Source: Promethearchaeota archaeon
Lineage (GTDB): Archaea > Asgardarchaeota > Lokiarchaeia > Sigyniarchaeales > SOKP01
Length of the DNA stretch: 21,008 nucleotides
Reading direction: 5' to 3'
Assembly (NCBI GenBank): GCA_004524535.1
Contig: SDNY01000062.1
Location: 1-21,008, forward strand
Shown here: positions 554-21,008 of the stretch, piece by piece
How positions within the stretch are numbered: the first letter of the stretch is position 1
How the letters are laid out: each line of letters opens with the position of its first letter
Notes under the pieces: model-generated
The model's database searches: none
What the model was told of the DNA's origin: nothing
What the model saw: only the letters and a program-made list of their open reading frames with translations
Translations under genes and position numbers: made by a program

Positions 554-589
554 GTCTCTTAATATTTATTGAATTTGATTCATTCCTAA

Positions 590-1885
590 TTATTTCTCTA
601 TTTTTAACGTTTCTTCTACTCTTTTGAAAAGAAAAATTGAGAGGATTAAAAATATGGGCGCAACGACAAAAACCCACGGAAGTCCGTAAATCGTAGCAAC
701 TATACCACCCACCGTTGCACCAATTATCTGAGAGACAGTATTTACCACGTTTAAGATCCCCATGAATTTACCTCTTTTTTCTTCTGGAAAAAGATCCTGT
801 GACCATGAATTAAGAGGTATTTCAAGCCCCAAAAGCCCCATTAATACTAAAGGCGTTGCTATGAGCAATATAATAAATTTATTTTCAGGATTTAAGAATG
901 CTACTGGGGTTAGGAGAAATCCTATAAGTGCAATTAAAATACCAGGAATGAGTGAAGTTTTTCTCCCAAATTTATCAGCAATTTTTCCAAGAAGTATCAT
1001 AACTATAACTACTGTCGGAAGAGATACTAAAATAATTAATAAAAACTCCATTGTAGTGAGTGCTAAAAAGAAAAAATAATTGAATAAAAATGGTAAAACT
1101 ACATAGATATGAGCTCTAAAGATGATTAGGGCAACTAATATTCGATAAAATTGCTTATTTTGTTTAAATTCCTCCAAATTGAACATTTCTTTTAGTTCAA
1201 CAATGAACGCTTTTTTTGGAGGTAATTCAGATGGAGAGGGCTCACTTAGAAAAAGAAGTCCGATCGTAGCGCAAATCATAACTGCTCCTCCACCTATAAT
1301 AAATAAAAATAGATGACCTTCCCTCGTCAAAATATTTCCAGTACCTCGTTTTACTGTGTAGAATTCATTAGCAACAAGTGTCATTGAAATTGCAAATAAT
1401 AAAGCAATGAATGATATTACTCCAACAATCCCATTTGCCCTTCCTCGTTTTTTAAGTTCAACTAAATCTGGAATCAATAAACGACCAGCTAAATGATATG
1501 CGTTAGAGGCAATTCCTATAATTATTACGTCAATGATAATACACATTAAAAAATTTTCAGCATAAGCAAACGTAATCATTCCAATCCCCATTATGAATCC
1601 AAAAAATATATAAGGTTTTCGTCTACCAAGTTTTGATCTCGTATTATCACTCTTAATTCCCCAAATTATCATCATAATTAGACCCATTAAGGCAGAAAGC
1701 GAAACCATTATGGAGATGTAATAATATGGTAAATTTAGAATATGATCAAGATATGTGTTGAAAAAGGCTGATTCAAAATAACCAAAGATCAGAGAGCCAG
1801 CTACTAAAAATCCTGTTATTATAGCAATTTTCTTAACTTCTTTAGGTAATTTTTCTTTTGTTTCTTTGTTATCAATTTCTTCCAT
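590..1885 (-). CDS. MFS transporter, GPH/sugar:cation symporter-like
   Basis: About 12 hydrophobic segments; motif A variants GIKSDNTRSKLGRRKPY and GKIADKFGRK. Confidence 0.9.
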   Translation of the reverse strand: MEEIDNKETKEKLPKEVKKIAIITGFLVAGSLIFGYFESAFFNTYLDHILNLPYYYISIMVSLSALMGLIMMIIWGIKSDNTRSKLGRRKPYIFFGFIMGIGMITFAYAENFLMCIIIDVIIIGIASNAYHLAGRLLIPDLVELKKRGRANGIVGVISFIALLFAISMTLVANEFYTVKRGTGNILTREGHLFLFIIGGGAVMICATIGLLFLSEPSPSELPPKKAFIVELKEMFNLEEFKQNKQFYRILVALIIFRAHIYVVLPFLFNYFFFLALTTMEFLLIILVSLPTVVIVMILLGKIADKFGRKTSLIPGILIALIGFLLTPVAFLNPENKFIILLIATPLVLMGLLGLEIPLNSWSQDLFPEEKRGKFMGILNVVNTVSQIIGATVGGIVATIYGLPWVFVVAPIFLILSIFLFKRVEETLKIEK

Positions 1886-1969
1886 CTTAGTAGAGCATAT
1901 TTTATTGAATTTTAATTTAAAAATTACTTATTTATATTCAATTTGTTAAATATATTATAATTAAAAATA

Positions 1970-3145
1970 TTGGTTTTTTCACAGATGGAATTTTCACAGC
2001 CATTTCAGTTAACTCCCTCAAACGCCCATCATTTTTTTGGTTATTATTCAATATGTCCATGGAGCAAAAATCAAAGATATTATGTATGTTTAGAAACAGA
2101 GTTCCATCATAGAATGCCTAAAAAAGGAGAAAAAGCAAAAATACTTCTACTGGACTTAAAAGAAGATACCGTGAACATTCTTTTTGAAACAGAAGCTTGG
2201 AACTTCCAACAAGGCTCTATGCTAAATTGGCTTCCCTCCTCACCAAATACACATATAATTTTTAACGATCTTAAAGGAGATATCCCTATATCTCGTATAA
2301 TAGACATTAGAGATAAATCTATTAAGTCTCTTCCATGCGCAATTAGTGCTGTTGCTCATAATCGCGATCTTGCACTTTGTCTCAACTATTCTAGATTACG
2401 TCGCAACAGAAAGGTTGTTTCATATCCTAGCAGCAGAAATCATCTAAAGGGACACCATCCAGATAATGATGGGATTTTTTTAATGGATTTAAAAACTGGA
2501 GAAAAGCACCTTATTATAAGTTTAGGTCAAATATGGAATTCAAATCCTAAGACTAAAACGATTCCAAAAGAAGATATCGGAAAAAAAATAAGTAAAGAAT
2601 TTTGGTTTAATCATGTTGAATTAAATCCTAGTGATGAGAGATTCTTTTTTTTAGCACGCTATTCCAATCGCATTGGACAATTAGTAACGAGCATGTGGAC
2701 AATAAATATCGATGGGACTGATCCTTATTTGCTTGTAGATTTTGGCAAACAGCTTTCACATTTTGGATGGTTGAATGATACTAACCTAATTATAACAATG
2801 AAGCAGCTAAAAAGGATTGATAAAAGTCATGTGATATTAGAAGATAAGAAAGGTAATCCAAAAGTTTTAGCACCAAAAAAGTTGATCAGGGATGGTCATC
2901 CTGCTATAAATCCTAAAGGGAATTTGTTGGCAACCGATTGCTATCCAATAAAAGGAAAAAGATATGTCTATATCGTAAATATGAAATCAGAGGAAATATT
3001 TACGGTTGCTTCATTTCGGAATCCTCCGAATATCAATGGGAATATTCGATGCGATCCTCACCCCCGTTGGAATAGGGAGGGAACACAGCTTTCTTTCGAT
3101 GGTCTTGGGCCAAATGGAAGACAAGTATATGTAATTAATTTTTAA
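1970..3145 (+). CDS. TolB/oligogalacturonate-lyase-like beta-propeller protein
   Basis: Motifs HHFFGYY, WNFQQG, FNH, DGHP and RCDPHPRW. Start is TTG 1970 or ATG 1985. Divergent from the MFS gene. Confidence 0.65.
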   Translation: MVFSQMEFSQPFQLTPSNAHHFFGYYSICPWSKNQRYYVCLETEFHHRMPKKGEKAKILLLDLKEDTVNILFETEAWNFQQGSMLNWLPSSPNTHIIFNDLKGDIPISRIIDIRDKSIKSLPCAISAVAHNRDLALCLNYSRLRRNRKVVSYPSSRNHLKGHHPDNDGIFLMDLKTGEKHLIISLGQIWNSNPKTKTIPKEDIGKKISKEFWFNHVELNPSDERFFFLARYSNRIGQLVTSMWTINIDGTDPYLLVDFGKQLSHFGWLNDTNLIITMKQLKRIDKSHVILEDKKGNPKVLAPKKLIRDGHPAINPKGNLLATDCYPIKGKRYVYIVNMKSEEIFTVASFRNPPNINGNIRCDPHPRWNREGTQLSFDGLGPNGRQVYVINF

Positions 3146-5401: not shown

Positions 5402-5779
5402 TTAATTTAGTAAAAATTCATTAATAACTGAAGTTATTGCTTGAAAATCCATAAGTATTTCGGGTTCACCGTCAAAAGCAACATCGCCAGCTTCATGGGC
5501 GCTGGAGATTTCAACCTCTCCAAATATTATTCCTTTAAAAGTAGCTAAGTTGGTTGTAAAGGTTAATGTTGGATTATTAATCTCGCCTTCTCCATAGTCT
5601 ATTTTTCCTTCCTTGAATTTTAGCCATAATTTTGCATTAGCATCAGAAAGAATTATTTGCCCTAAGAAATCCATATCCAACATTGCCATATCTTCGAATT
5701 CTTCTTTCAATCCCTCATTTTCTAAAGAAGCTTTTTTATAAACATCTAATTTAGATTTAATTTCGTCTAATATTCCCAT
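5402..5779 (-). CDS. SCP2 sterol/lipid-binding domain protein
   Basis: GEGEINNPTLTF...FKGIIFGEVEISSAHEAGDVAFDGE fits the SCP2 pattern. ATG 5779 preferred over TTG 5788. Confidence 0.8.
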   Translation of the reverse strand: MGILDEIKSKLDVYKKASLENEGLKEEFEDMAMLDMDFLGQIILSDANAKLWLKFKEGKIDYGEGEINNPTLTFTTNLATFKGIIFGEVEISSAHEAGDVAFDGEPEILMDFQAITSVINEFLLN

Positions 5780-5865
5780 TAATTTCAACTTTTTTTATAT
5801 TTACATTATTATAAAAGTTGAATCGTTAAAAATTTTGATGAGGATGATTAATCATGGCAAAAGAC

Positions 5866-5887
5866 AAAAAAAATTAAAAAAAAAAAA
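5866..5887 (-). terminator. Oligo-T archaeal terminator of the sulfur-relay operon
   Basis: T12 and T8 tracts on the minus strand just after the stop at 5911. Confidence 0.5.
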
Positions 5888-5910
5888 GATTGTAAAAATT
5901 ATTTAAATTT

Positions 5911-6210
5911 CTACATATTTATTATGGTTTCACATTCAAAAATTAAATCAATTATCTCAGAATTATCAACTAATTTAATTTTATCTGAAATGAAGTTGGA
6001 TAACCCACGTGTATCTATATGCTCTTTGCACGCTGAGATTTTCTTGTTTTGATTAAGCGCTTGTGTTACTGCTTTGTTGGATTTATTAGCGAAATAGACA
6101 GCATTTTGAAGTAATAGAATTGTTACATCGTCGTCATCTGAGTGTTCCATTGCGAGTTCTATACCTGTGATATCCTCACTTGTAATAAAATATAATACTT
6201 TTTTTCCCAT
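5911..6210 (-). CDS. DsrH/TusB-family sulfur relay protein
   Basis: ILLLQNAVYFA and HIDTRGL motifs, about 99 aa. ATG 6210 follows a GGAGGA RBS. Confidence 0.75.
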   Translation of the reverse strand: MGKKVLYFITSEDITGIELAMEHSDDDDVTILLLQNAVYFANKSNKAVTQALNQNKKISACKEHIDTRGLSNFISDKIKLVDNSEIIDLIFECETIINM

Positions 6211-6224
6211 CTTTTTCAATCCTC

Positions 6225-6569
6225 CTAAAATGGTATGGTTACAGTTGAATTCGCAATTATATCTAATATTTCTTGATGTTCTTTTATTTCAACATCATCT
6301 ATTAAATCGTCCTTAGTAAGACCGCGGTCATCAAGAGATTTTTTATCAATCAGAATATCTAAATCTATGTTTCTAATAAATTCTATGTGCATGGAGTACA
6401 TGGTTTTATCTACGTCTTTGATAAATGCAAATACAGCATCATTAATGACGACAGTTATAGGGTCAAAATCAGCACTTACGGCAACTGTCATTCTTAATCC
6501 TTCAACAGGATAAAGTGTTCCGTGAGGAGGTTGCCGCAAAAGGATAACTATATTTTTTTCTTCGGACAT
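6225..6569 (-). CDS. DsrF/TusC-like (DsrE superfamily) protein
   Basis: ILLRQPPHGT..EGLR, DAVF and SLDDRGL motifs; no Cys; AGGTGA RBS. Confidence 0.8.
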   Translation of the reverse strand: MSEEKNIVILLRQPPHGTLYPVEGLRMTVAVSADFDPITVVINDAVFAFIKDVDKTMYSMHIEFIRNIDLDILIDKKSLDDRGLTKDDLIDDVEIKEHQEILDIIANSTVTIPF

Positions 6570-6581
6570 TTTGCATCACCT

Positions 6582-6944
6582 TTAACAAATTACTATTAAT
6601 CTATCTGTTTCTTCAATAATTTTCGCAAGATCAGGTGTTCCAGCTCGTTTTACATCGCCGCATTCTCTTTTTAAACAATTTTTCATTGTTCCTCTTACTA
6701 AGAGGCATAAATTGCATAATCTTACGACTGCTCCTTTTGTGAGTATCTCTCTAAATCCTTCCTCGATATTGAAGATGCCTTCAATTTTCTTTTGGTTATC
6801 CAAAAGTGCATTGACCGCATCCATATAGCAAAAAATACGAACTTCATGTCCTTTATCTAATGCTGCGTTTGATAGCTTAACAACCGTCTCAGAAGCTTGT
6901 TTCTGATAAGGTCCGTCAAAAAAGAGTATCCCTAATCGAGCCAT
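6582..6944 (-). CDS. DsrE/TusD-family sulfurtransferase
   Basis: GPY, AALDKGHEVRIFCYMDAV and catalytic CxxC..RG (LCNLCLLVRG). True start is ATG 6944 (MARLG) after GGAG; the longer ORF-track start lies inside yeeE. Confidence 0.85.
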   Translation of the reverse strand: MARLGILFFDGPYQKQASETVVKLSNAALDKGHEVRIFCYMDAVNALLDNQKKIEGIFNIEEGFREILTKGAVVRLCNLCLLVRGTMKNCLKRECGDVKRAGTPDLAKIIEETDRLIVIC

Positions 6945-6967
6945 TTGTTTATATTCAACTCCAATTC

Positions 6968-8002
6968 TTAATCTTCGTTTCTCATAAACAGTATATAGGT
7001 CATAACCCAGCAACCTAAGATGATACAAATTCCTACAACTAAACTACCTACTGAACCCATAGGAATTCCACTTAGGAAGTTTCCAACGTTACATCCTGCA
7101 GCGAGCACTGCTCCAAATCCCATAAGAAATCCACCGATGGCTTGTTTCACTAATGTCATTTTATCTTTTGGAACTCTTATTTTAAATTCTTTTGAAATGA
7201 CAGCCGCGATAAATGCTCCCACGACAATCCCTAGAACCAAAAATAAATCCCAAGATGGAACAAACAAAAGCAAGTCACCCCAGCCCTTAGTAATGCCCAT
7301 TGGGTAATTTCTTTGAGCAATATAAAAGGAAACAATCCATGCAATAGTGTTCAAAACACCAATAGCTAATCCAGCTACCCACCAAGGATAGGGTGTTTTA
7401 AACATTTTGTTTCCAATATTGCTAAAATCTAAAACAGGCTCGTTAGCTGACTTTTTCTCCTTTATAGATGGTAATAGCTCTTTAAAAGAAAGAATAGCTA
7501 TCACGATAATACCTATAATGAGCATTACAATCGGGGTAAATGCTCCAGCTATCGTAAGACTGCCCTTAGTAGTTGGATCATTTATGGGAAATAAGATTCC
7601 TGCCATTGCTGGTTTTATAAACAGGCTCGTAAGTACAACTCCAACTGCTAATGTTATCAATGCAACAAGAGAACCAATCATGCCTTCACCAACTCTATAA
7701 GTAGTTCCGCTAGCACATCCAGCTGCTAAAACCATTCCTATTCCAAAGATAAAACCTCCAAGAATACTCCCTACTATTGTAAAGGGTTTAGGCGCTGCTG
7801 TTAGAACTCCACTCAAAATCATGATTGAAAAGCCAATCATCGAGACTCCAAGTATAAGTATAACGCCTTTAAATAATTTGTATTCTTTTAATAAGATGAT
7901 ATCTCTAAATGCGGAATTCATGCAGAAACGACCACGTTGTAATATAAATCCAAAGATTATTCCTATAATCATTCCGGAAAGTATTACTAGTAGTAACGCC
8001 AT
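6968..8002 (-). CDS. yeeE: YeeE/YedE (TsuA-like) thiosulfate/sulfur-compound transporter
   Basis: Three conserved Cys motifs, GRFCM, LAAGCASG and LAAGCNVG; multi-TM; GAGGTGA RBS. Confidence 0.92.
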   Translation of the reverse strand: MALLLVILSGMIIGIIFGFILQRGRFCMNSAFRDIILLKEYKLFKGVILILGVSMIGFSIMILSGVLTAAPKPFTIVGSILGGFIFGIGMVLAAGCASGTTYRVGEGMIGSLVALITLAVGVVLTSLFIKPAMAGILFPINDPTTKGSLTIAGAFTPIVMLIIGIIVIAILSFKELLPSIKEKKSANEPVLDFSNIGNKMFKTPYPWWVAGLAIGVLNTIAWIVSFYIAQRNYPMGITKGWGDLLLFVPSWDLFLVLGIVVGAFIAAVISKEFKIRVPKDKMTLVKQAIGGFLMGFGAVLAAGCNVGNFLSGIPMGSVGSLVVGICIILGCWVMTYILFMRNED

Positions 8003-8011
8003 TTTTTCACC

Positions 8012-8245
8012 TCATTTCACTTTAACCAGGATGACCCATGCAGCTGTTCCCTCTTTTTCTGTTGAAATTACCTCGTGACCTAAAGATTTCATTGTTTCTG
8101 GAATTCTTTCAGCCGAAAGAGGATAATCAACTATTATCTTAAGAATCTCTCCTGATTTCATCTTTTTAATTTTTCTTTTACTTTTTACATCTGGATAAGG
8201 ACAAACATCGCCCGAACAATCCAGTGTTTCTGTTATATCGACCAT
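8012..8245 (-). CDS. tusA: TusA/YeeD-family sulfur carrier
   Basis: LDCSGDVCPYP (CPxP motif), GEILKIIVD, 77 aa. Confidence 0.92.
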   Translation of the reverse strand: MVDITETLDCSGDVCPYPDVKSKRKIKKMKSGEILKIIVDYPLSAERIPETMKSLGHEVISTEKEGTAAWVILVKVK

Positions 8246-8267
8246 TTTTCTTATACCAATTTTTTTT

Positions 8268-8357
8268 TTGAATCAATATTCAAATAAGAATTTGAATAAT
8301 TTTGGTTATATTTTACTCTTTATAAAATTAATTAATATATATCGAATATTTATTCAA
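8268..8357. promoter_or_regulatory. Candidate operator palindromes upstream of tusA
   Basis: TTGAAT-N4-ATTCAA at 8268-8283, TCGAAT-N4-ATTCAA at 8342-8357, and a 9-4-9 inverted repeat TATTCAAAT/ATTTGAATA at 8277-8298. Confidence 0.4.
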
Positions 8358-8426
8358 AATGGATACGCACCTTTAATGAAAATATTATTTCTTGAATATC
8401 TTTAGCATATTATTACAATAAACATA

Positions 8427-8450
8427 TATTATGGATAATTATTCATAATA
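8427..8450. promoter_or_regulatory. 24-bp near-perfect palindrome in the tusA/nadB divergent spacer
   Basis: TATTATGGATAATTATTCATAATA, one mismatched pair. Confidence 0.35.
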
Positions 8451-8605
8451 ATTCACGTAAGCTCATTTTTACATTTTTTTCAAATATTTTCAATATTGCC
8501 CATGGATAATATAACATTCAAAAATATAATGAAGTTATTATGGAAAAATAAAAAAAAACAAATATGATTAATTCTATTAAAGTTTAAATTAGCATTTTTT
8601 GATTA

Positions 8606-10177
8606 ATGAAAATTTCGACTGACATTTTAATAATTGGTGGAGGTATTTCAGGTTTATCATTGGCTATTAAATTAAGTAATTTAGCCAAAGATAGTAATAT
8701 TTTACTAATAACTAAAGAAAAATTAGAGGATTGTAATACCTATCACGCACAAGGTGGAATCGCTTGCGTTTGGAACAAAAATGATAATATTGAGACACAC
8801 GTTCAAGACACATTAATTGCCGGGGATGGTCTATGCGATGAAAATGTTGTAAGACAGATAATATCTAAAGCTCCTGAACGGATAAAAGAATTAATTAATT
8901 CGGGTGTTGAATTTACAAGAAAAGAAAATGGAGAATATGATCTGGGGCAAGAAGGAGGTCATTCAGAACGAAGGATTCTACATGTGAACGATCTTACTGG
9001 ACAAAGTATTGAATCTAAACTAATAGAAAAAGTAAAAACCTGTAAGAATGTAGAAATAAAGGAGAAATGGTGTGCGGTAAATTTATACGCAAAAAACTCT
9101 AAATGTTATGGTGCTTATATCTTGAATCATATTACGGGAGAGATTCACAATATTGCAGCTAAAGCTACCATTTTAGCTACGGGAGGTTCAGGCAAAATTT
9201 ACTTATACACTACAAATCCAGATGTTGCTTCGGGAGATGGGATCGCAATGGCATATCGAGCTGGAGCAATGATCTCAAACATGGAATTCTATCAATTTCA
9301 TCCCACATGCTTATTTCACCCCTTTGCAAAGAATTTTTTAATCACAGAAGCAATGCGAGGAGAAGGTGCAATTTTAAAGGACTTATCAGGGAATTCCTTT
9401 ATGGAAAAATATCATCCCCTAAAGGATTTAGCACCTAGAGATATTGTCTCGAGGGCAATTGATGCGGAATTAAAGAAATCTGGAGATGATCATGTTTTAT
9501 TAGATATTGCTTCATATAAAGATACAGATTTTATAAAAAGCCATTTTCCTGGGATCTATGAGAATTGTTTAGAATTTAATATAGATATAACCAAGGAGGC
9601 TATACCAGTGGTTCCCGCAGCACATTATTGTTGTGGAGGTGTAGTTGCCGGAATCGATGGAAAGACAGATATAAAGAATTTATTTGTTATTGGTGAATCC
9701 GCATGTACAGGCTTACATGGGGCAAATCGCTTAGCTAGTAATTCATTGTTGGAAGGTATTGTTAGTGCGCATCAATGCGCAACTACAATCGCTAATGAAA
9801 TCAAGGAAAGAAAGATTAAAGAATTTGAAGAATGGGAAATTGGAAGTGCCATACCATCAACTGAAGGTGTTGTTATAACACAAAATTGGGATGAAATAAG
9901 AATCTCAATGCAGAATCTAGTTGGAATTGTCAGATCGGACAGGAGATTAAAGAGAGCTTTGAAACGAATGAACCTCTTTTCTGAGGAAATCGATTATTAT
10001 TATTGGAATTACCAAATAGAAAAAAATTTAGTAGAATTAAGAAATTTATCGATGGTGGCTGAAATAATTATAAGATGTGCTATGAGCAGGAAGGAAAGTA
10101 GAGGCACTCATTTCAATATAGATTATCCTAATAAAGCAAAAATAGCACGAAATTCATATATCAGAAGACCTTGGTAA
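8606..10177 (+). CDS. nadB: L-aspartate oxidase
   Basis: GGGISG FAD loop; AQGGIA, EGGHSERRILH, QFHPT, LITEAMRGEG, LAPRDIVSRAI, GLHGANRLASNSLLEG and ESRGTH. Confidence 0.97.
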   Translation: MKISTDILIIGGGISGLSLAIKLSNLAKDSNILLITKEKLEDCNTYHAQGGIACVWNKNDNIETHVQDTLIAGDGLCDENVVRQIISKAPERIKELINSGVEFTRKENGEYDLGQEGGHSERRILHVNDLTGQSIESKLIEKVKTCKNVEIKEKWCAVNLYAKNSKCYGAYILNHITGEIHNIAAKATILATGGSGKIYLYTTNPDVASGDGIAMAYRAGAMISNMEFYQFHPTCLFHPFAKNFLITEAMRGEGAILKDLSGNSFMEKYHPLKDLAPRDIVSRAIDAELKKSGDDHVLLDIASYKDTDFIKSHFPGIYENCLEFNIDITKEAIPVVPAAHYCCGGVVAGIDGKTDIKNLFVIGESACTGLHGANRLASNSLLEGIVSAHQCATTIANEIKERKIKEFEEWEIGSAIPSTEGVVITQNWDEIRISMQNLVGIVRSDRRLKRALKRMNLFSEEIDYYYWNYQIEKNLVELRNLSMVAEIIIRCAMSRKESRGTHFNIDYPNKAKIARNSYIRRPW

Positions 10178-10183
10178 AAATAT

Positions 10184-10717
10184 CTATTCTTTTAATTCTT
10201 TAGCTTTTTTCAAAAATTTATTATATTTTGTTTTTTCAATCCAAAAACCTATATCAAGCATTTTATTAAATATATCATCAAACTCTTGGTAATTTTTTAA
10301 GAATCCTTTTTCAAGTGCTTCTAGTAGAATTTCTGTGCTCTATTTTGTTTTGATTCCTTTTGATTTTGCTATTGTTCTTGCTTTTTTATCATTTATCAGG
10401 AGCATATCAGCTTTTATTTCCATGCATAAAGCTATTGCGTAAGCTTCCTCACGTCCTAAATTTTTAGTGAGATTTAAGGCAATCTCATGATATTCCTCTG
10501 ATTTAGGATCTTCAACAATTAACCATCCTTCTTCTTTTGCTTTAATTTCATATTTAATATCTGATGGAATTTCAGCATCTGACTTTGAAAGGGGATAAAT
10601 TAATTCTTCCCATACTGCATTAGGAATAAAAATTTTTGAGTATAAATCTTTTAATAAAGTTAATTTCTCAATTTTAGCAAAAAAAATTATAGGAGATGTA
10701 TCAGAAATCACTAGCAT
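10184..10717 (-). pseudogene. PIN/DUF3368-family toxin interrupted by an in-frame TAG at 10340-10342
   Basis: N-terminal VISDTSPII...EEAYAIAL...LLINDKKAR. After the TAG the frame continues 51 codons (STEILLEALEKG...MLDIGFWIEK...), matching the DUF3368 C-terminal pattern. Confidence 0.75.
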
Positions 10718-10726
10718 ATAATCAAC

Positions 10727-10951
10727 TTAAATATGATAGGGAATTTTCGCTTTCGCCCGAATGGAGTCTATTTCGCGGTATGGAATACGAGCAATTACAG
10801 AAGCTTTTCCAATTGATATATCTCCTCGCATATATAACTCTAAAGCATCTTGAATGGCTTCTGGAAGAGATTTTATATATTCCCAATCAATAGGTTTTAT
10901 TAAATCCTTTTCATTAAACCAGTATTGCTTCGTATCACTTTTTTGAACCAT
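10727..10951 (-). CDS. UPF0175-family antitoxin
   Basis: ALELYMRGDISIGKASVIARI signature; directly upstream of the PIN gene. Confidence 0.8.
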   Translation of the reverse strand: MVQKSDTKQYWFNEKDLIKPIDWEYIKSLPEAIQDALELYMRGDISIGKASVIARIPYREIDSIRAKAKIPYHI

Positions 10952-11082
10952 AATAAATCCACATAATCTTATTCAAAAACTTATAAGAAACTCTAATATT
11001 AATATTTATCCCATTTGGTAATGATATTAAACTGATATCTCTTGAAATTTAAAATATTTAAAAATCAAGATGGGTGCTAATA

Positions 11083-11148
11083 CATTATAATATAGATTCT
11101 TAAAAAGTAAAATTACTTAGATTGATATTAATTAGAAGACCTTGGTAG
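11083..11148 (+). repeat. Degenerate duplicate of the nadB 3' end
   Basis: Translates HYNIDS*KVKLLRLILIRRPW* versus NadB HFNIDYPNKAKIARNSYIRRPW*. AGAAGACCTTGGTA is identical at 10163-10176 and 11134-11147. Confidence 0.8.
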
Positions 11149-11242
11149 ATTGATATAACATCATTTTAAATAAAATTTTAAATTATACTTAACATTAATA
11201 ATGAAAAACTAATATTATTTACATCAAAAATTAATAAAGAAG

Positions 11243-15249: not shown

Positions 15250-15290
15250 TTGTCTCGTGAACACTAGATTTTGCATTTACACTTTTTTTT

Positions 15291-15771
15291 GGTGGATGAA
15301 AAATTAAGTAATGATAAAATGACTTAAAAATTTTTTAAAGAACAATAGATAATATAATATTATCGAAATTCTATTTAAAATTATAATTTGAGCGTGAAAA
15401 TATTTGCCTAGATGTAAATCTTGTGGAAAAGAAATTGACGATTACCAATATCAGCAGTTTAAGGGTAAATGTTCTGATTGTGTTAGAGTAAAAAAAGCAG
15501 GTAAATCAGATGCAATAGGATGGGGGGCTTTTTTTGTAATAATGGGATTGCTTGCATTAGTTGCTGGAATTTTTCTTACTTTTCAGACCCAAAGTTTTGA
15601 AAGTATAATCTTTTTGGGTATAACAAGTTGCGCACTCTTAACATTAGGTGGTTTCTTAATACTCTATGGACGGAAATAATGTCTATTCCTTCTTTAAAAG
15701 TTCTATTGGAGGAATTATTATATTTGTAGAATTAGATTAACTTAATTCCACTACTAAATTTTTTATCCACC
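15291..15771. mobile_element. Non-autonomous TIR-bounded passenger cassette 1 (MIC/MITE-like)
   Basis: 23-bp TIRs at 15291-15313 and 15749-15771 (20/23 match), flanked by the 9-bp direct repeat CTTTTTTTT (15282-15290, 15772-15780). No transposase. Confidence 0.65.
15404..15679 (+). CDS. Small Zn-ribbon (CxxC-x15-CxxC) plus two-TM membrane protein, paralog A
   Basis: CKSC...CSDC, two hydrophobic helices, YGRK end; TTG start; co-linear with 18097-18372. Confidence 0.8.
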   Translation: MPRCKSCGKEIDDYQYQQFKGKCSDCVRVKKAGKSDAIGWGAFFVIMGLLALVAGIFLTFQTQSFESIIFLGITSCALLTLGGFLILYGRK

Positions 15772-15784
15772 CTTTTTTTTTTTC

Positions 15785-15883
15785 CTTTTTAAACTTTGAA
15801 AGTGAATATATATTATTCTAATATAAAAATTATTTAATCTTTGATTGAATAATACTTAATGAAATTATGAGTAAAAAGTTGCT
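15785..15883 (+). repeat. ERCC4 upstream region and first codons, copy 1
   Basis: Aligns with 18443-18539 at 86 of 99 columns (hand count). Confidence 0.9.
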
Positions 15884-16016
15884 TCAGATAATAATTGACC
15901 ATCGAGAACATAAGCTGAAAGAATTACTTGACCAAAAAAAGGATATAATTCAATATGAGTCAAAACAACTTGATATTGCTGATGTGATCGTTTCTAATGA
16001 GGTTATTTTAGAATAA
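15867..16016 (+). pseudogene. ERCC4/XPF 5' fragment 1 (49 aa)
   Basis: MSKKLLQIIIDHREHKL...QLDIADVIVSNEVILE*; about 26/49 identical to the N-terminus of the gene at 20392; stops at the ERK motif. Confidence 0.85.
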
Positions 16017-16150
16017 TATTTAATAACATATAGTAACACTTCTTACTTACATCTTTGAAAACTATTAAATCTTAATTTGGTTTAGTATCTTTAATTATTA
16101 GGTGTTTTAACGTATGACTTAAAAAACAATCATATTTGAGAATTTTATCT

Positions 16151-17524
16151 TTAAATCATTTTATTTTTTAAAGATTCAATATTAAGTTTGATTTTTTCTC
16201 CCAATTTACTATTTTCTAAATTATGCTCATTTAAGGTTTCTAATGCATTTTTTAATAAATCTAACGCCCGAGTGCTATCTCCCTGTTTGTGATATACCTT
16301 TCCAATATTATTTAAAGTAAGAGCGATTGTTGAGTGATTATTTTGGCTTTTTGCTAATTCAATAGCATGTTGGAATTTCTCCAAAGCTCTAGCATAATTA
16401 CCTAATTTATAATGTACTTTTCCAATACAATTGATATATATTGATTTATTTGATTGATTTGGTGATTTCTCTATAATTTCAACAGCTTTATTACATTTTT
16501 CCAATGCTAAATCATATTCTCTTTTTATTAAAGAAATTACACCAAGATAATTTAGAGAATTAGCTATATTTCCTGTTAATTCAAGTTCTAATGAATGTTT
16601 TAAAGCTTCTTCATACTTTATTAAAGCATCATAGTAATGATAATCAATGAGATCAAGTCCACCTAAGATATTAAGCAACTGAACTTTTAAAATTAATAGT
16701 AATTTCTTATTTTTTGAATCTTTCAATACATCTGCAATTTTTAATGCTTCAATACAAAAATTGTAAGCTTCCTGATAATTTTTCTTCTTAAGCAATATTG
16801 TACATATCATTAATGAGTTTTTTAATCTTTCTAGTGAATATCTATCACTTTCAGAGAAAGATAAATTTATTAAAAAATATTTATCTTCGCTATTTTTAAG
16901 TCTTTTTATATCTTCTTTTTTTAAAATCTTTTTTCTCATATTTTCAATCTTTTTTGATATTTTACGAATTCCTAAATTATCAAGGATATTAAAGTATCTA
17001 AAAGATTGTTTTAAATCTACTTCATTTTCCAATAAGCTCATAATTTTCAGGACTATTCCCTTTTTCATCATTTTAATTATGTCTAATATTTTTTTTTGTT
17101 GAAATTCTGAATTCTCAAGGATTTTACAAATCTCTAATAATCCCAATGGTGAACATTGAGGGTTTGCACAAATCTCTCCTAATTTTCGTCCTGTTTCCTC
17201 TCTTATCTCTCCTAAACTCACGGCTCGAGCACAATAGATTCCAGCTCTATTATAATCTCCAATTCTCAAATATGGTTCAATTAATTTTATTAATGCGGTT
17301 GATTTATTTAGACTGAGTAAATAAGCTAATTCATAAGATTTGATTGCCTTTTTGTACTGCTCATTAATATTATAAAGATCACCCAATATAATCCAATAAT
17401 TACTATCTGTTTCAAATTTTTTTTTTATATTTTTACAATAGTTAATTCCCTCTTCATACTCACCATTTAAAAGGCATTTTCTTATATAAAGAAGATCATC
17501 ATTAGAATTTTCCATATTATCCAT
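16151..17524 (-). CDS. Tetratricopeptide repeat protein
   Basis: Several TPR motifs, e.g. WIILGDLY...YKKAIKSYELA, SLNYLGVI, IGKVHYKLGNYARALEKFQHA and TLNNIGKVY. Confidence 0.9.
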   Translation of the reverse strand: MDNMENSNDDLLYIRKCLLNGEYEEGINYCKNIKKKFETDSNYWIILGDLYNINEQYKKAIKSYELAYLLSLNKSTALIKLIEPYLRIGDYNRAGIYCARAVSLGEIREETGRKLGEICANPQCSPLGLLEICKILENSEFQQKKILDIIKMMKKGIVLKIMSLLENEVDLKQSFRYFNILDNLGIRKISKKIENMRKKILKKEDIKRLKNSEDKYFLINLSFSESDRYSLERLKNSLMICTILLKKKNYQEAYNFCIEALKIADVLKDSKNKKLLLILKVQLLNILGGLDLIDYHYYDALIKYEEALKHSLELELTGNIANSLNYLGVISLIKREYDLALEKCNKAVEIIEKSPNQSNKSIYINCIGKVHYKLGNYARALEKFQHAIELAKSQNNHSTIALTLNNIGKVYHKQGDSTRALDLLKNALETLNEHNLENSKLGEKIKLNIESLKNKMI

Positions 17525-17638
17525 AAAACCTTCATTCTTTATGATTTTATATTTATTGGATTTATTAGTTTCTTTTATGTATCATAAATATTTAAATATT
17601 TTTGAAAATATAGTATAAAAACGTTATTGGACAACAAA

Positions 17639-17918
17639 TTAATTCATATTTTTCTTTAGTTTTAATTCTTCAATATAGAGTTAATTATTTTTTTTTAAAG
17701 GATTATCAGTTATTTTAAGACCATCTAAAATAGCTAAAGCAGTATTGTGATATTCAGTTGCTTTTTACTTACCTTGTTCCCCATATAACATAGCAATATT
17801 TTTGTATGCTATCGCCAGTTCTAATGGATTTTGAAAATTTTTTGCAATTTCAAGTGCTTTATTAAATCTATCTAACGCTTCAGAATACATCTTTTCTTTT
17901 AGATACCCATTCCCTATA
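17639..17918 (-). pseudogene. C-terminal remnant of a TPR paralog
   Basis: IGNGYLKEKMYSEALDRFNKALEIAK...NIAMLYGEQGK*KATEYHNTALAILDGLKITDNPLKKNN*LYIEELK aligns with the last ~90 aa of the 16151-17524 protein. Two in-frame stops; 5' part missing. Confidence 0.8.
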
Positions 17919-18030
17919 ACATTCGCTCCGTACGCTGTGGGAGTCACATTGATATATGGATCCTTCGGTTTAATGTGACACTGGGCTCCCTCCGCTGAAG
18001 TGTCGCAACCAGATGTGAGATTCGTTATCT
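17914..18030. other. GC-rich imperfect hairpin element, integron attC-like
   Basis: Bounded by ATAAC...GTTAT; internal stems GTCACATT/AATGTGAC, GGGAG/CTCCC and GACACT/AGTGTC; 51% GC over 17921-18020. Confidence 0.45.
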
Positions 18031-18045
18031 TTACACCAAAAAAAG

Positions 18046-18432
18046 GGGGGATATAAAATTCAGTGATTTAGATATTTTCTTAAATAGAATAAATAATCAT
18101 TTCCGCCCATAATAGACTAATAAGCCACCAATTATTAGTAATAATGATCCTATAGTCCACAAAAGTATTAATTCATCGGTGTTTGGTCGTGTGAATAAAA
18201 ACATTACTCCTACAGAAGTTACAATAATTCCTATTAAAAGAAGTAACGCACCAAAGCATGCAAAACTTCCACGACCTACTTTACCTACCCGAATACAATC
18301 TGAACATAGACCTTTATAATTTTTAAATTGGTAATCATCAATTTCTCTTCCACAAGATTTACATCTAGGCATAATTTATTATTTACATTTTTTAGTATTT
18401 AATTCTTTTTATCACTGAATTTGGTACCCAAT
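18046..18432. mobile_element. TIR-bounded passenger cassette 2
   Basis: IRs at 18049-18067 and 18411-18429 (16/19 match, perfect 12-bp AAATTCAGTGAT core); same motif family as cassette 1. Confidence 0.55.
18097..18372 (-). CDS. Small Zn-ribbon plus two-TM membrane protein, paralog B
   Basis: 91 aa, ungapped alignment to paralog A, 40/91 identical. Confidence 0.8.
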   Translation of the reverse strand: MPRCKSCGREIDDYQFKNYKGLCSDCIRVGKVGRGSFACFGALLLLIGIIVTSVGVMFLFTRPNTDELILLWTIGSLLLIIGGLLVYYGRK

Positions 18433-18442
18433 CTTTTTTTTT

Positions 18443-18539
18443 CTTTTTAAACTTTGAAAAAGAAAATATATTGTTCTAATATAAATTATTTTATATTTGA
18501 TTCAATAATACATAATGAATTGATGAGTAATAAGTTGCT
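18443..18539 (+). repeat. ERCC4 upstream region and first codons, copy 2
   Basis: Direct repeat of 15785-15883. Confidence 0.9.
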
Positions 18540-18556
18540 GATATAGTGATTTCTAA
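18523..18556 (+). pseudogene. ERCC4/XPF 5' fragment 2, internally deleted
   Basis: ATG AGT AAT AAG TTG CT (MSNKLL) is fused to GCT GAT ATA GTG ATT TCT AA (ADIVIS); similarity is lost after that. Confidence 0.7.
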
Positions 18557-18638
18557 GCATAAAATCTATAGCTAAACTGAAAAATGTTTAGAGATTATAC
18601 ATTTTTAAAGTAAAAAGATTTAATCAATATGATTTGTA

Positions 18639-20399
18639 ATGGTTTATAAATCTCCTGAAAGATATATTAAAATTAAAAAGGAATTATTAAAAGATATTTA
18701 TAAAGAATTAAAGAAAAAATCAGGTTTAACATATAAAGATATAAGTAATGAAATAGGTACGAATTTTGATAAAATTATTTTTAGGGGGGACCTCCTTTCC
18801 GAAAAATGCTTTAAAAAACTAAAAAAATTAATTATTAGAGAGTTAGGAAATGAATTTCTATCAAACTTTATTAAAAATGGAGACTTTCCCCATAAAACTA
18901 TAATAGGACGAGGTGGAAGTGAAGAAATAATATTAAAAGAAAATAATAAAAATGCTGAATTTGTTGGAATAATGCTTGGAGATGGAACACTTTATAACAA
19001 TGGTAATGTGGTTTCTGTAAGTCTTAATGGAGTTGATGAGGAAGATTATGTAAAATATGTGAAAAAATTAATGAGTGATATTTTTAAGAATTTTGAAATT
19101 CATGAGATTTGGGAAAGAAATAAATTTCCAAAATATAAACACAAAAAAGGACTTGAGCTATCTATTTTTTCACAAGCTGTACATTATTCACTTGTTTCAA
19201 TTGGTTTAGTTCCTGGAGATAAAGTAGAAAATCAAGTTAAAATTCCTGATTGGATTTATAAAAGAGATTCATTTAAAATTGGTTGTTTAAAAGGATTATT
19301 TGACACGGATGGCTCAATTTTTATTAATAAAAGAAATAGAAGTTTTGTTTTGAATTTTACGAATGGTTCAAAACCATTAGTTCAAGATTTTTATAAATTA
19401 TGTAATTCGCTTAACATTAAACCAATATCAAAAATATATGATGGATTAAATAAATCTAAGATTGAAACAAATAAAAGAGAAGTAATTAGAAAATTTTTAA
19501 ATATAGTAGATCCTGAAAAAATGAAAGAAACTTATAAAAAAAAATATTTAGGGACTAATTTAATTTATTTAAATACCTCTAAAAAAATCATAAAAGAAAT
19601 TAACGATAAAATTAAAAAAGATTATCCAAATGAATATAATCATCGTTATTCAAAAGAATTTACATTATACTTAAAAAAAATATGTGAAAAAATATTTGGT
19701 AAGAATAAAATTGATGAAATCAATGGGCATAAGTATACCTCCGAGATTTCTGATGAGATGATTGATTCTGCAATTGATAAAGCCCTTAAATTTAAATATC
19801 GACGATATAATAAACATTATGTAAAGAATTTGAAACACTTATTTGAAAAATTAGGTTCTTATTTATTTATGATAGAATATTTAAAAGAACATGATGAAAG
19901 ACCCATACTATTTGAAGAGAAAATTAGAGATCACCTAAGGCAATATTTTATAGAAAAGAATATATCTTATGAGAAATGGTTAAAAAAATATAAAATAAAA
20001 AAAATCCTAATAGATAAAAACAATAATGAGGTCTTAGAATTCCCTTTAAAATTAAGAAGAATAGTTGGCCAACAAATTTTCAAAATTCTAAATAATATAG
20101 ATCTTAAAAAAACAGATAATCAAGTGTTAAAAGAATTAATTGCCAGATTTAATGAGTTAGATATAGTTTTATTAACTTGGTTATTAGACAAACCTCATTA
20201 TAAACAAGCTCTGACAAAATATTTTATTGATTTCATAAGATTAATTCGAAAAATCAATGAATTGTATAATTTAAAAGAAAGTTATAGTGCTTATAGTATT
20301 GCAAATGATTCAAATTTGGATATCTCTCTTTCCTATAATTCTATAAAAGATATTTTAAATGATTTAATAAAATATTATCAAAACTATTACAATGAATAG
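18639..20399 (+). CDS. Free-standing double-motif LAGLIDADG (DOD-type) endonuclease with N-terminal HTH and long C-terminal extension
   Basis: HTH-like KKKSGLTYKDISNEIG; motifs AEFVGIMLGDG and CLKGLFDTDG; KIPDWI block; no intein splicing motifs seen. Confidence 0.85.
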   Translation: MVYKSPERYIKIKKELLKDIYKELKKKSGLTYKDISNEIGTNFDKIIFRGDLLSEKCFKKLKKLIIRELGNEFLSNFIKNGDFPHKTIIGRGGSEEIILKENNKNAEFVGIMLGDGTLYNNGNVVSVSLNGVDEEDYVKYVKKLMSDIFKNFEIHEIWERNKFPKYKHKKGLELSIFSQAVHYSLVSIGLVPGDKVENQVKIPDWIYKRDSFKIGCLKGLFDTDGSIFINKRNRSFVLNFTNGSKPLVQDFYKLCNSLNIKPISKIYDGLNKSKIETNKREVIRKFLNIVDPEKMKETYKKKYLGTNLIYLNTSKKIIKEINDKIKKDYPNEYNHRYSKEFTLYLKKICEKIFGKNKIDEINGHKYTSEISDEMIDSAIDKALKFKYRRYNKHYVKNLKHLFEKLGSYLFMIEYLKEHDERPILFEEKIRDHLRQYFIEKNISYEKWLKKYKIKKILIDKNNNEVLEFPLKLRRIVGQQIFKILNNIDLKKTDNQVLKELIARFNELDIVLLTWLLDKPHYKQALTKYFIDFIRLIRKINELYNLKESYSAYSIANDSNLDISLSYNSIKDILNDLIKYYQNYYNE

Positions 20400-21008
20400 A
20401 AACAAACCTTTAAAAATCATCATTGATGATCGTGAGACCAAATTATGTTCATTATTTGATAAAAAAGAAGACAGAATCTTAGAATATGAAAAAAAGAGAT
20501 TAAGTGTTGCGGATATCATTGTATCAAGCGAAATTGGTATTGAACGAAAAGAAGGTTTTGATTTCGCTAATTCTTTAACTGATAATCGCTTATTTGATCA
20601 ATTATTAAGGCTGAAAGATAATTATAATATCCCTATTCTTATTTTAGAAGGATTGAATCAAAATGTATTTAATAACATTGGAGTTTCGATCAATAGTATT
20701 TATGGGGCACTTTCTTTTATATCTTATAAATTACGTATATGCGTTATACCCACTATTAATTTAGAACATACAGCAATTGTAATAGAAAGAATCGCCTATA
20801 GAGAACAAGTCAAAGACGATTTACCATTGATAAGGAGAGTAGCTCCGAAAGAAATGTCTAAAAAGGATAGAAGGTCGTTTATAATTGAAGGGCTAATTGA
20901 TATTGGTCCAAAAAAGGCAAAAGCTCTAATTGAAAAATTTAAAACTCCTTATAATGTATTTAAAGCAATAAAAAAAACAGAGATTTTATTTACTCGCACT
21001 AACAATCC
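20392..21008 (+). CDS. xpf: ERCC4/XPF-family structure-specific endonuclease (short form), 3'-truncated by window edge
   Basis: Not in the ORF track. MNRNKPLKIIIDDRE...ADIIVSSEIGIERKEGFDF...RLFDQL...ILILEG...HhH GLIDIGPKKAKALIEKF. Overlaps the LAGLIDADG gene by 8 nt. Confidence 0.92.
   Translation, partial: MNRNKPLKIIIDDRETKLCSLFDKKEDRILEYEKKRLSVADIIVSSEIGIERKEGFDFANSLTDNRLFDQLLRLKDNYNIPILILEGLNQNVFNNIGVSINSIYGALSFISYKLRICVIPTINLEHTAIVIERIAYREQVKDDLPLIRRVAPKEMSKKDRRSFIIEGLIDIGPKKAKALIEKFKTPYNVFKAIKKTEILFTRTNN

Follow-up and report, generated by a model that had tools for sequence, protein, structure and literature searches.

Within the window, i.e. the whole 21,008-nucleotide (nt) stretch of DNA analysed here, two small units lie between a ydjM gene and a full-length gene for an ERCC4-domain nuclease (20392 to the window end), and each of them is bounded by inverted repeats and contains a single passenger open reading frame (ORF), which encodes a 91-amino-acid (aa) protein with a zinc ribbon (ZR). 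The units (cassette 1, 481 bp, and cassette 2; size range 387-481 bp) might each represent a mobile gene cassette that is bounded by repeats, lacks a transposase and prefers a particular target, a reading to which we assign a probability of roughly one half. The window is A+T-rich (~20-35% G+C in 300-nt windows) and encodes ordinary archaeal housekeeping genes; no Rfam family was matched at gathering thresholds, and a tRNA scan detected 0 genes. The ERCC4-domain nuclease has hundreds of close homologs with the source names Promethearchaeota, Lokiarchaeota, Hodarchaeota and Thorarchaeota, which identifies the source as an Asgard archaeon (Promethearchaeota-type). When species-representative genomes were scanned with the protein encoded by ERCC4, five loci were obtained for comparison (L001-L005), among which the closest relative is L001, a Promethearchaeota contig from a metagenome-assembled genome that is collinear with the window, its proteins being 85-97% and its genes 90-94% nt identical.

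Both cassettes are built in the same way: terminal inverted repeats of ~22 nt, one ZR gene, and a C/T-run right after the downstream repeat, with no gene for an enzyme. In gene orientation, cassette 2 aligns end to end with cassette 1 (upstream repeat, A/T-rich spacer, ORF, downstream repeat and C/T-run), and because this alignment includes the conserved T-run, it is the unit in its entirety that is turned around in cassette 2 with respect to the matching flanks. The spacers differ in length (91 vs 38 nt upstream and 70 vs 29 nt downstream, for cassettes 1 and 2), and the downstream repeat together with its T-run is the best-conserved non-coding part of the cassettes (27 nt, 89%). The C/T-run would act as a terminator, and an A/T-rich, TATA-like stretch ~25-34 nt upstream of ZR_A, recognised by eye, would provide the cassette with a putative promoter. 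A hairpin of the form GGGGG...CCCCC, probably a terminator-like structure of the ordinary kind, lies 3' of ERCC4 in L001 (10766-10818); with 4 mismatches in 22 nt, its 3' arm, AAATTTTTTATCCCCC, is similar to the downstream repeat of the cassettes, and this resemblance hints that the downstream repeat may double as a terminator element.

The two passengers had been described as 44% identical and opposite in orientation, and this holds: ZR_A and ZR_B are paralogs with 44% aa and 60.5% nt identity, encoded on opposite strands (Table 1). At the nt level they are 79% identical in the initial 90 nt and 47-57% identical where the membrane part is encoded. Both ORFs are intact, of equal length and conserved at their termini, and in the N-terminal region nonsynonymous differences are rarer than synonymous ones (pN 0.165 vs pS 0.384), suggesting purifying selection on the N-terminus; it is this selection that leads us to take ZR as a working passenger gene, predicted to encode a small zinc-binding membrane protein. 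The opening MPRCKSCG is common to ZR_A and ZR_B, except that the start codon is TTG (15404) in the former and ATG (18372) in the latter, and ZR_A may be translated less efficiently or be at the onset of decay.

Four related ends forming two inverted pairs, each around one 91-aa gene, had been recognised in the sequence-only reading, and all of them are present, with small corrections of their coordinates. Within a cassette the two ends match at 19 of 22 positions (cassette 1) or at 16 of 22 (cassette 2, where the inner 12 nt are identical), and between the cassettes at 14-17 of 22. The pattern of the 22-nt ends matched the window 4 times vs 0.04 expected, and at least 4 matches were reached in 0/100 shuffles, although this test is partly circular, the pattern having been built from those four ends. 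Imperfect inverted repeats are common in the A+T-rich DNA of this region (225 pairs in 5 kb), and the ends were therefore tested by specific criteria. When 22-mers with at least 19/22 complementarity and an outer span of 201-701 nt were sought, two places in 21 kb were found, the cassette 1 pair and 15805/16024; the controls contained none in 5/5 shuffles and one each in 2/10 composition-preserving block shuffles. When 30-mers with at least 24/30 complementarity were sought, cassette 2 (18038-18067/18411-18440) was the single place, and one of ten block shuffles also gave one. Both inverted pairs exceed the shuffled controls.

An exact empty site exists in L001, as the search for such sites proposed in the sequence-only reading revealed. 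There, ydjM is followed by a 114-nt spacer and then by ERCC4, and at the position of cassette 1 the spacer reads TTACAC-T9 followed by CCTTTTTAAAC (block CCTTTTTAAACTTTGAAAG). The window at this position reads TTTACAC-T8-[GGTGGATG...ATCCACC]-C-T11-CCTTTTTAAACTTTGAAAG, and the extra 481 bp start and stop exactly at the outer bases of the repeats. In four of the five loci (L001, L003, L004 and L005) ydjM immediately precedes ERCC4 and the cassette is missing, and L002 has other genes at this position. A 17-protein ZR profile, run against the six-frame ORFs of the loci and the window, matched only the two window genes and thus found no ZR homolog within +/-10 kb in any of the five loci. The exact empty site in L001 and the empty relatives indicate that cassette 1 is an insertion.

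The surroundings of the two cassettes correspond, as had been noted earlier: TTTACAC stands on the left of both and a repeat of the ERCC4 upstream region on the right, 87-90% identical (90% over 52 nt, 87% over 61 nt). The cassette interiors, at 60.5% nt identity, are far more diverged than these flanks, which suggests that the cassettes are different family members that arrived separately and which leads us, in agreement with the sequence-only reading, to reject a simple block duplication; two separate arrivals at the same short target in turn support mobility with target preference. The site is thereby found in three states in three closely related lineages: empty (L001), occupied by type A in forward orientation (native part of the window) and occupied by type B in reverse orientation (donor of cassette 2). 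It had also been considered that the cassette might be an invertible segment, or that a block was duplicated and then flipped between the inverted repeats. Inverted repeats do flank a unit that is present in both orientations; however, this scenario is at odds with the 60.5% vs 87-90% contrast, with the position of copy 2 inside demonstrably foreign DNA (see below), with the lack of an invertase gene nearby among the 27 window ORFs, and with T8 vs C-A7 directly outside the repeats, because a crossover within the repeats leaves the outside sequence unchanged. Simple inversion is thus disfavoured, and we regard it as highly implausible.

It could further be argued that ZR is an ordinary resident gene, ancestral between ydjM and ERCC4, which was deleted in the relatives by slippage between T-runs, with the repeats serving as operator and terminator. 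The T-runs around cassette 1 could indeed mediate a precise deletion and the downstream repeat with its T-run resembles a terminator, but all four relatives with ydjM-ERCC4 adjacency are without ZR, including the more distant ones with a different spacer, no ZR homologs were found near any of the five loci, and the opposite orientation as well as the difference between 60% and 87-90% identity would be left unexplained, so that a resident gene is very improbable. Coordinates of the features discussed here and below are given in Table 1.

Table 1. Features of the two cassettes and of the surrounding ydjM-ERCC4 region (positions in the window)
Feature	Position	Strand	Remarks
Left target flank of cassette 1, TTTACAC then T8	15276-15290 (TTTACAC 15276-15282)	+	
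End 1L, upstream inverted repeat of cassette 1	15291-15312	+	GGTGGATGAAAAATTAAGTAAT
ZR_A	15404-15679	+	91 aa, TTG start; N-terminal CxxC...CxxC zinc ribbon and two-helix membrane hairpin
End 1R, downstream inverted repeat of cassette 1	15750-15771	-	GGTGGATAAAAAATTTAGTAGT
C then T11, right of cassette 1	15772-15783	+	duplicated target or cassette's own terminator T-run
Native ERCC4 upstream region, copy 1	15784-15866	+	block CCTTTTTAAACTTTGAAAG kept in L001, L003 and L004
Native ERCC4 5' fragment	15867-16016	+	first ~132 nt, 93% nt identity to L001; homology ends ~15998; stop 16014-16016
TPR-repeat protein gene	16151-17524	-	457 aa; in foreign block; not in the 5 loci
TPR pseudogene remnant	17681-18029	-	C-terminal repeats; frame break 17764; 5' end missing
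Left target flank of cassette 2, TTTACAC then C	18030-18037 (TTTACAC 18030-18036)	+	sole part of left flank matching copy 1
A7, then G, then end 2L	18038-18067	+	downstream repeat then T7 in gene orientation
End 2L, cassette 2 (downstream repeat in gene orientation)	18046-18067	+	GGGGGATATAAAATTCAGTGAT
ZR_B, paralog of ZR_A	18097-18372	-	91 aa, ATG start
End 2R, cassette 2 (upstream repeat in gene orientation)	18411-18432	-	ATTGGGTACCAAATTCAGTGAT
C-T9-C then ERCC4 upstream region, copy 2	18433-18522	+	87-90% identical to copy 1
ERCC4-start remnant	18523-18539	+	17 nt, ATGAGTAATAAGTTGCT; further homology not above chance
LAGLIDADG gene	18639-20399	+	586 aa, two motifs; stop overlaps ERCC4 start by 8 nt; not in the 5 loci
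Foreign ERCC4 5' part	20392-20840	+	~150 codons, ~65% nt identity to all 5 relatives
Native ERCC4 3' continuation	20841-21008	+	92-95% nt identity to L001; gene runs off window end

The interval that separates ydjM from the full-length ERCC4 in the window includes 5.1 kb absent from L001. Compared with L001, the full-length ERCC4 gene is 53-78% nt identical over its first ~450 nt (in 60-nt windows) and 92-95% identical beyond. Codons 1-150 are equally distant from all five loci (~65% nt), which are themselves 72-93% identical to each other, and over codons 150-206 the nt identity is 93% with L001 and 78-79% with the other loci. This switch of identity at ~nt 450 indicates that the ERCC4 gene of the window is a chimera and that ~16000-20840 (~4.8 kb) is imported DNA, with a left junction (~nt 134 of ERCC4) without homology and a homologous right junction (~nt 450). 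The divergent N-terminal type also occurs in two database proteins (P0008 and P0009), the C-termini of which differ from that of the window's protein. The imported block comprises the TPR gene, the TPR pseudogene, a second ydjM-ERCC4 spacer (from TTTACAC to 17 nt of ERCC4) with cassette 2, the LAGLIDADG gene and the divergent ERCC4 5' part. The target thus occurs twice because the foreign block that recombined into ERCC4 brought along a second intergenic copy, and as the two spacer copies are roughly equally close to L001, copy 2 would have originated in a third, closely related lineage.

Several details of the block concern its junctions. The 17-nt ERCC4-start remnant is followed by 99 nt of unmatched sequence before the LAGLIDADG gene begins; that a second ERCC4 remnant extends collinearly to the same breakpoint as the first was rejected (z -0.22 to +0.23 with four references; 199-316 of 500 shuffles reached the score). 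A reading of 16000-16150 as a third, inverted copy of the intergenic region was likewise rejected, its similarity not being above shuffles. A 25-nt inverted repeat (84%; 15802-15826/16003-16027) brackets the native ERCC4 stump, its right arm beginning just past the breakpoint, and the homology does not reach further. It accounts for the second of the two places (15805/16024) found above by the 22-mer criterion, and may be a trace of the formation of the left junction, or chance. The TPR pseudogene breaks off next to cassette 2, suggesting a rearrangement breakpoint within ~8 nt of the cassette's left end, and its open frame (17681-18067, minus strand) reads through the end of the cassette. Between the pseudogene and cassette 2 there is a G+C-richer stretch (17920-18030, ~35% vs 20-25% around), for which neither the window nor the loci gave a DNA match; folding of 17900-18070 on both strands revealed no structure (z -0.47 and +0.66).

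The 586-aa protein encoded upstream of the full-length ERCC4 is a candidate free-standing homing endonuclease: it shows a LAGLIDADG domain (PF14528, E 3.5e-9, residues 212-289) with the motifs LGDG and DTDG ~105 residues apart. It has 50 homologs, the closest of which are 94% and 88% identical (P0169 and P0170), the others from 43% down, and a search of PDB sequences gave nothing below E 0.39. To judge from these comparisons, the ERCC4 pattern looks like a homing-endonuclease-linked replacement of the 5' end of a gene in an archaeal chromosome. Short copies of atp9 beside a free-standing LAGLIDADG ORF are described for the mitogenomes of the fungus Armillaria (PMC6506933). The ERCC4 locus is similar to that case in its adjoining LAGLIDADG ORF, in the truncated gene-end copies upstream and in a chimeric allele with a sharp switch of identity. 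It differs from what is described there in that it is chromosomal and archaeal, in that the replacement affects a nuclear-type repair nuclease gene of the ERCC4/XPF-Hef type at its 5' end, and in that the LAGLIDADG protein carries ~290 extra C-terminal residues, its role as an endonuclease being a prediction.

If the cassettes are mobile units, both ends would be recognised by the product of a gene located elsewhere in the genome, with a DDE transposase as the likeliest candidate, and the unit would insert into or beside the T-run between the ydjM terminator and the ERCC4 promoter block in either orientation. Judging from their divergence, two different family members would have entered the same short target in two closely related lineages. 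Sequence comparisons suggest that a homing-endonuclease-linked ERCC4 allele first entered the donor lineage, and that a larger piece of ~4.8 kb, the outline of which is visible in the window, would then have recombined into the native ERCC4 of the window's ancestor. This piece would have consisted of the other lineage's filled target, the LAGLIDADG gene and the divergent ERCC4 5' part, and the native 5' stump would have been left behind.

A number of observations weigh against such mobility. The 9-bp direct repeat reported earlier for cassette 1 is present (C+T8, 15282-15290/15772-15780), but being a homopolymer it is ambiguous as a target duplication: it fits a duplication at a staggered cut but may simply reflect the cassette's own T-run. 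The T-run on the left is probably the ydjM terminator. Cassette 2 has no direct repeat, with C-A7 on its left and a complete native C-T9 on its right, and its target homology on the left is limited to 7 nt (TTTACAC), not rising above shuffles beyond. The conservation of the T-run beside the downstream repeat suggests that it belongs to the element. Since the T-run is conserved in both cassettes and cassette 2 lies between its own A7 and the native C-T9, both copies are explained equally well without any duplication if the element brings a T-run of its own and inserts at one or the other edge of the native one. The known copies number only two and share one type of site, and no further copies of the ends were found with up to 5 mismatches in ~124 kb (the 21-kb window and 5 x 20.6 kb of relatives), except for 3 lone, chance-like matches. 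No transposase or recombinase domain was detected among the 27 window ORFs, so that a cognate transposase is lacking there, and Pfam revealed no transposase among 9 ORFs from L001 and L002. The earlier proposal of a transposase-less cassette family with a preferred target is supported by the discrete insertions, the empty site and the diverged interiors, and further copies and a transposase were not found in the DNA and ORFs searched.

A site-specific process would account for the double use of a single site no less well than a generic transposase does. A circular intermediate might integrate at the T-run, as an att-like core, by means of a recombinase of the tyrosine or serine type whose gene lies elsewhere, with the repeats as binding sites for the recombinase or accessory proteins; the two insertions into the same short target, the T-runs that flank cassette 1 in the manner of attL and attR, and the cassette's own T-run are in line with this. 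However, no recombinase is encoded among the window ORFs, a single att core fixes the orientation and yet the cassettes are opposed, A7 rather than a T-run lies on the left of cassette 2, and a homopolymer makes a poor crossover core, which renders site-specific integration of this kind unlikely. A bolder conjecture would see the ZR cassettes as an Asgard family of enzyme-less elements that home, in either orientation, to the terminator-promoter junction upstream of an ERCC4/XPF-type gene and are moved by a host or linked nuclease, not by a classical transposase, the locus being a hot spot at which the LAGLIDADG enzyme would drive the replacement of the 5' end of the nuclease gene and drag cassettes between lineages; we consider it improbable.

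The exchange of DNA at this locus also raises the question of whether an old polymorphic cassette locus could account for the data. One ancient insertion would then have given rise to very divergent alleles, exchanged by homologous recombination via the conserved flanks, with the repeats as cis elements of the gene unit, the orientation changed by rearrangement, and no dedicated transposition today. Both copies lie at the same type of locus and none elsewhere in the ~124 kb, the similarity of the flanks far exceeds that of the interiors, as would result from recombination homogenising the flanks, the genome clearly takes up and recombines foreign DNA here, and the insertion of a PIN/UPF0175 gene pair elsewhere in the window (described below) likewise shows duplication of a flank and not terminal inverted repeats. 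On the other hand, the repeats, the co-variation of the ends within a cassette and the exact coincidence of the indel with the repeat ends would require a separate explanation, the insertion points differ by T-run length, the two copies have unlike sequences immediately beyond the repeats, and three states in three close lineages would need a long-lived polymorphism. We therefore rate a polymorphic locus as doubtful, and prefer separate insertions of a mobile cassette.

Among known systems, mobile insertion cassettes such as MIC231 of Bacillus come closest in anatomy. In the cited bacterial accounts, these consist of passenger genes between terminal inverted repeats of the insertion sequence (IS) type, without a transposase (PMC3913671, PMC5444012). 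The ZR cassettes share with them, and with elements resembling miniature inverted-repeat transposable elements, the short terminal inverted repeats, the small size, the single passenger gene, the missing transposase and the presence or absence at an otherwise conserved site. They differ from mobile insertion cassettes in having no known cognate IS, two known copies in one target and an ambiguous duplication, in their Asgard archaeal host, and in a passenger that appears to bring its own putative promoter and T-run terminator. The length of the ends (~22-23 nt), their GGT start and the possible 9-bp duplication at cassette 1 would be reminiscent of the IS1 family, whereas an InsA/InsB-like gene is missing among the window ORFs and cassette 2 shows no duplication. 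As in invertons, inverted repeats bracket a unit that is present in both orientations; unlike invertons, the unit has no adjacent invertase, is a whole self-contained gene, and occurs as 60%-identical paralogs at two places with different outside flanks. On anatomical grounds, we rejected an integron cassette (no attC-type 3' site, no integrase) and an IS200/IS605-type element (ends not subterminal hairpins in the same orientation, no TnpA).

For Asgard archaea, a 2026 survey gives a mean of 8.5 IS elements per genome with IS200/IS605 as the most widespread family (PMC13343696), and the aloposons of Heimdallarchaeia are described as elements of tens of kb with giant proteins that integrate at tRNA genes (PMC8813620). 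Aloposons, so described, and ZR cassettes are both mobile Asgard DNA with a site preference, but they are unrelated in size, content and target. A non-exhaustive literature search found no description of the present cassette, nor, for Asgard archaea, any of small non-autonomous elements with a working gene, which are barely described in archaea. A clean empty site and two divergent members in one target make this a concrete case for how small accessory genes may move between close Asgard lineages, and in the ERCC4 mosaic a conserved chromosomal repair gene has had one end replaced in connection with a homing-endonuclease gene; such replacement is better known from organelles and phages.

The ZR family is found elsewhere but is sparse: when 1.84 billion representative proteins were searched exhaustively with a profile, 43 relatives were retrieved at E<=0.001, of which 2 reached E<=1e-10, one of them being ZR_B. 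Its members share the pattern MPxCxxCG...Q...C..C followed by two hydrophobic helices, and an AlphaFold model based on 17 sequences (mean pLDDT, i.e. predicted local distance difference test, 85.9) shows a zinc knuckle and then a helical hairpin (residues 24-61 and 65-90). Compared with the PDB, this model gave 0 matches at E<=0.001 and resembled generic helical hairpins only. Pfam returned weak zinc-ribbon, DUF and holin-like matches for 17 family members, NCBIfam a single sub-threshold match of ZR_A (TIGR04104, E 7e-4, 19.9 bits vs a cutoff of 45), the ESM Atlas no ZR match at or above 0.9, and PADLOC no match for ZR_A, ZR_B or the LAGLIDADG protein, so that none of these libraries (Pfam, PADLOC, NCBIfam, ESM Atlas and PDB) assigned a function to ZR. 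A word-indexed homolog search with ZR_A gave 5 candidates, only one of which was true and proved to be the window's own protein, and in a phage collection neither ZR_A (tblastn, E ~0.8, Enterococcus phages) nor cassette 1 (blastn, two short matches at E 0.04) had a meaningful match.

Other parts of the window also differ from L001. A PIN/UPF0175 toxin-antitoxin-like pair (10178-11150) is inserted after a FAD-oxidoreductase gene; a perfect direct repeat of 14 nt (AGAAGACCTTGGTA) borders the insertion, which is followed by a decayed second copy of ~80 nt of the 3' end of the FAD-oxidoreductase gene, which makes it the second case in the window of a gene-end duplication at an insertion. The block 5405-8618, with SCP2, three DsrE/DsrH-like genes, a YeeE-type sulfur transporter and TusA, does not occur in L001, where the flanking genes are ~110 nt apart. 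At 587-3140, an MFS transporter gene and a 391-aa ORF without a family take the place of a different 1.1-kb segment of L001 (764-1933), and a 51-nt piece at the left edge of this region (587-637) is 100% identical to L001 1858-1908.

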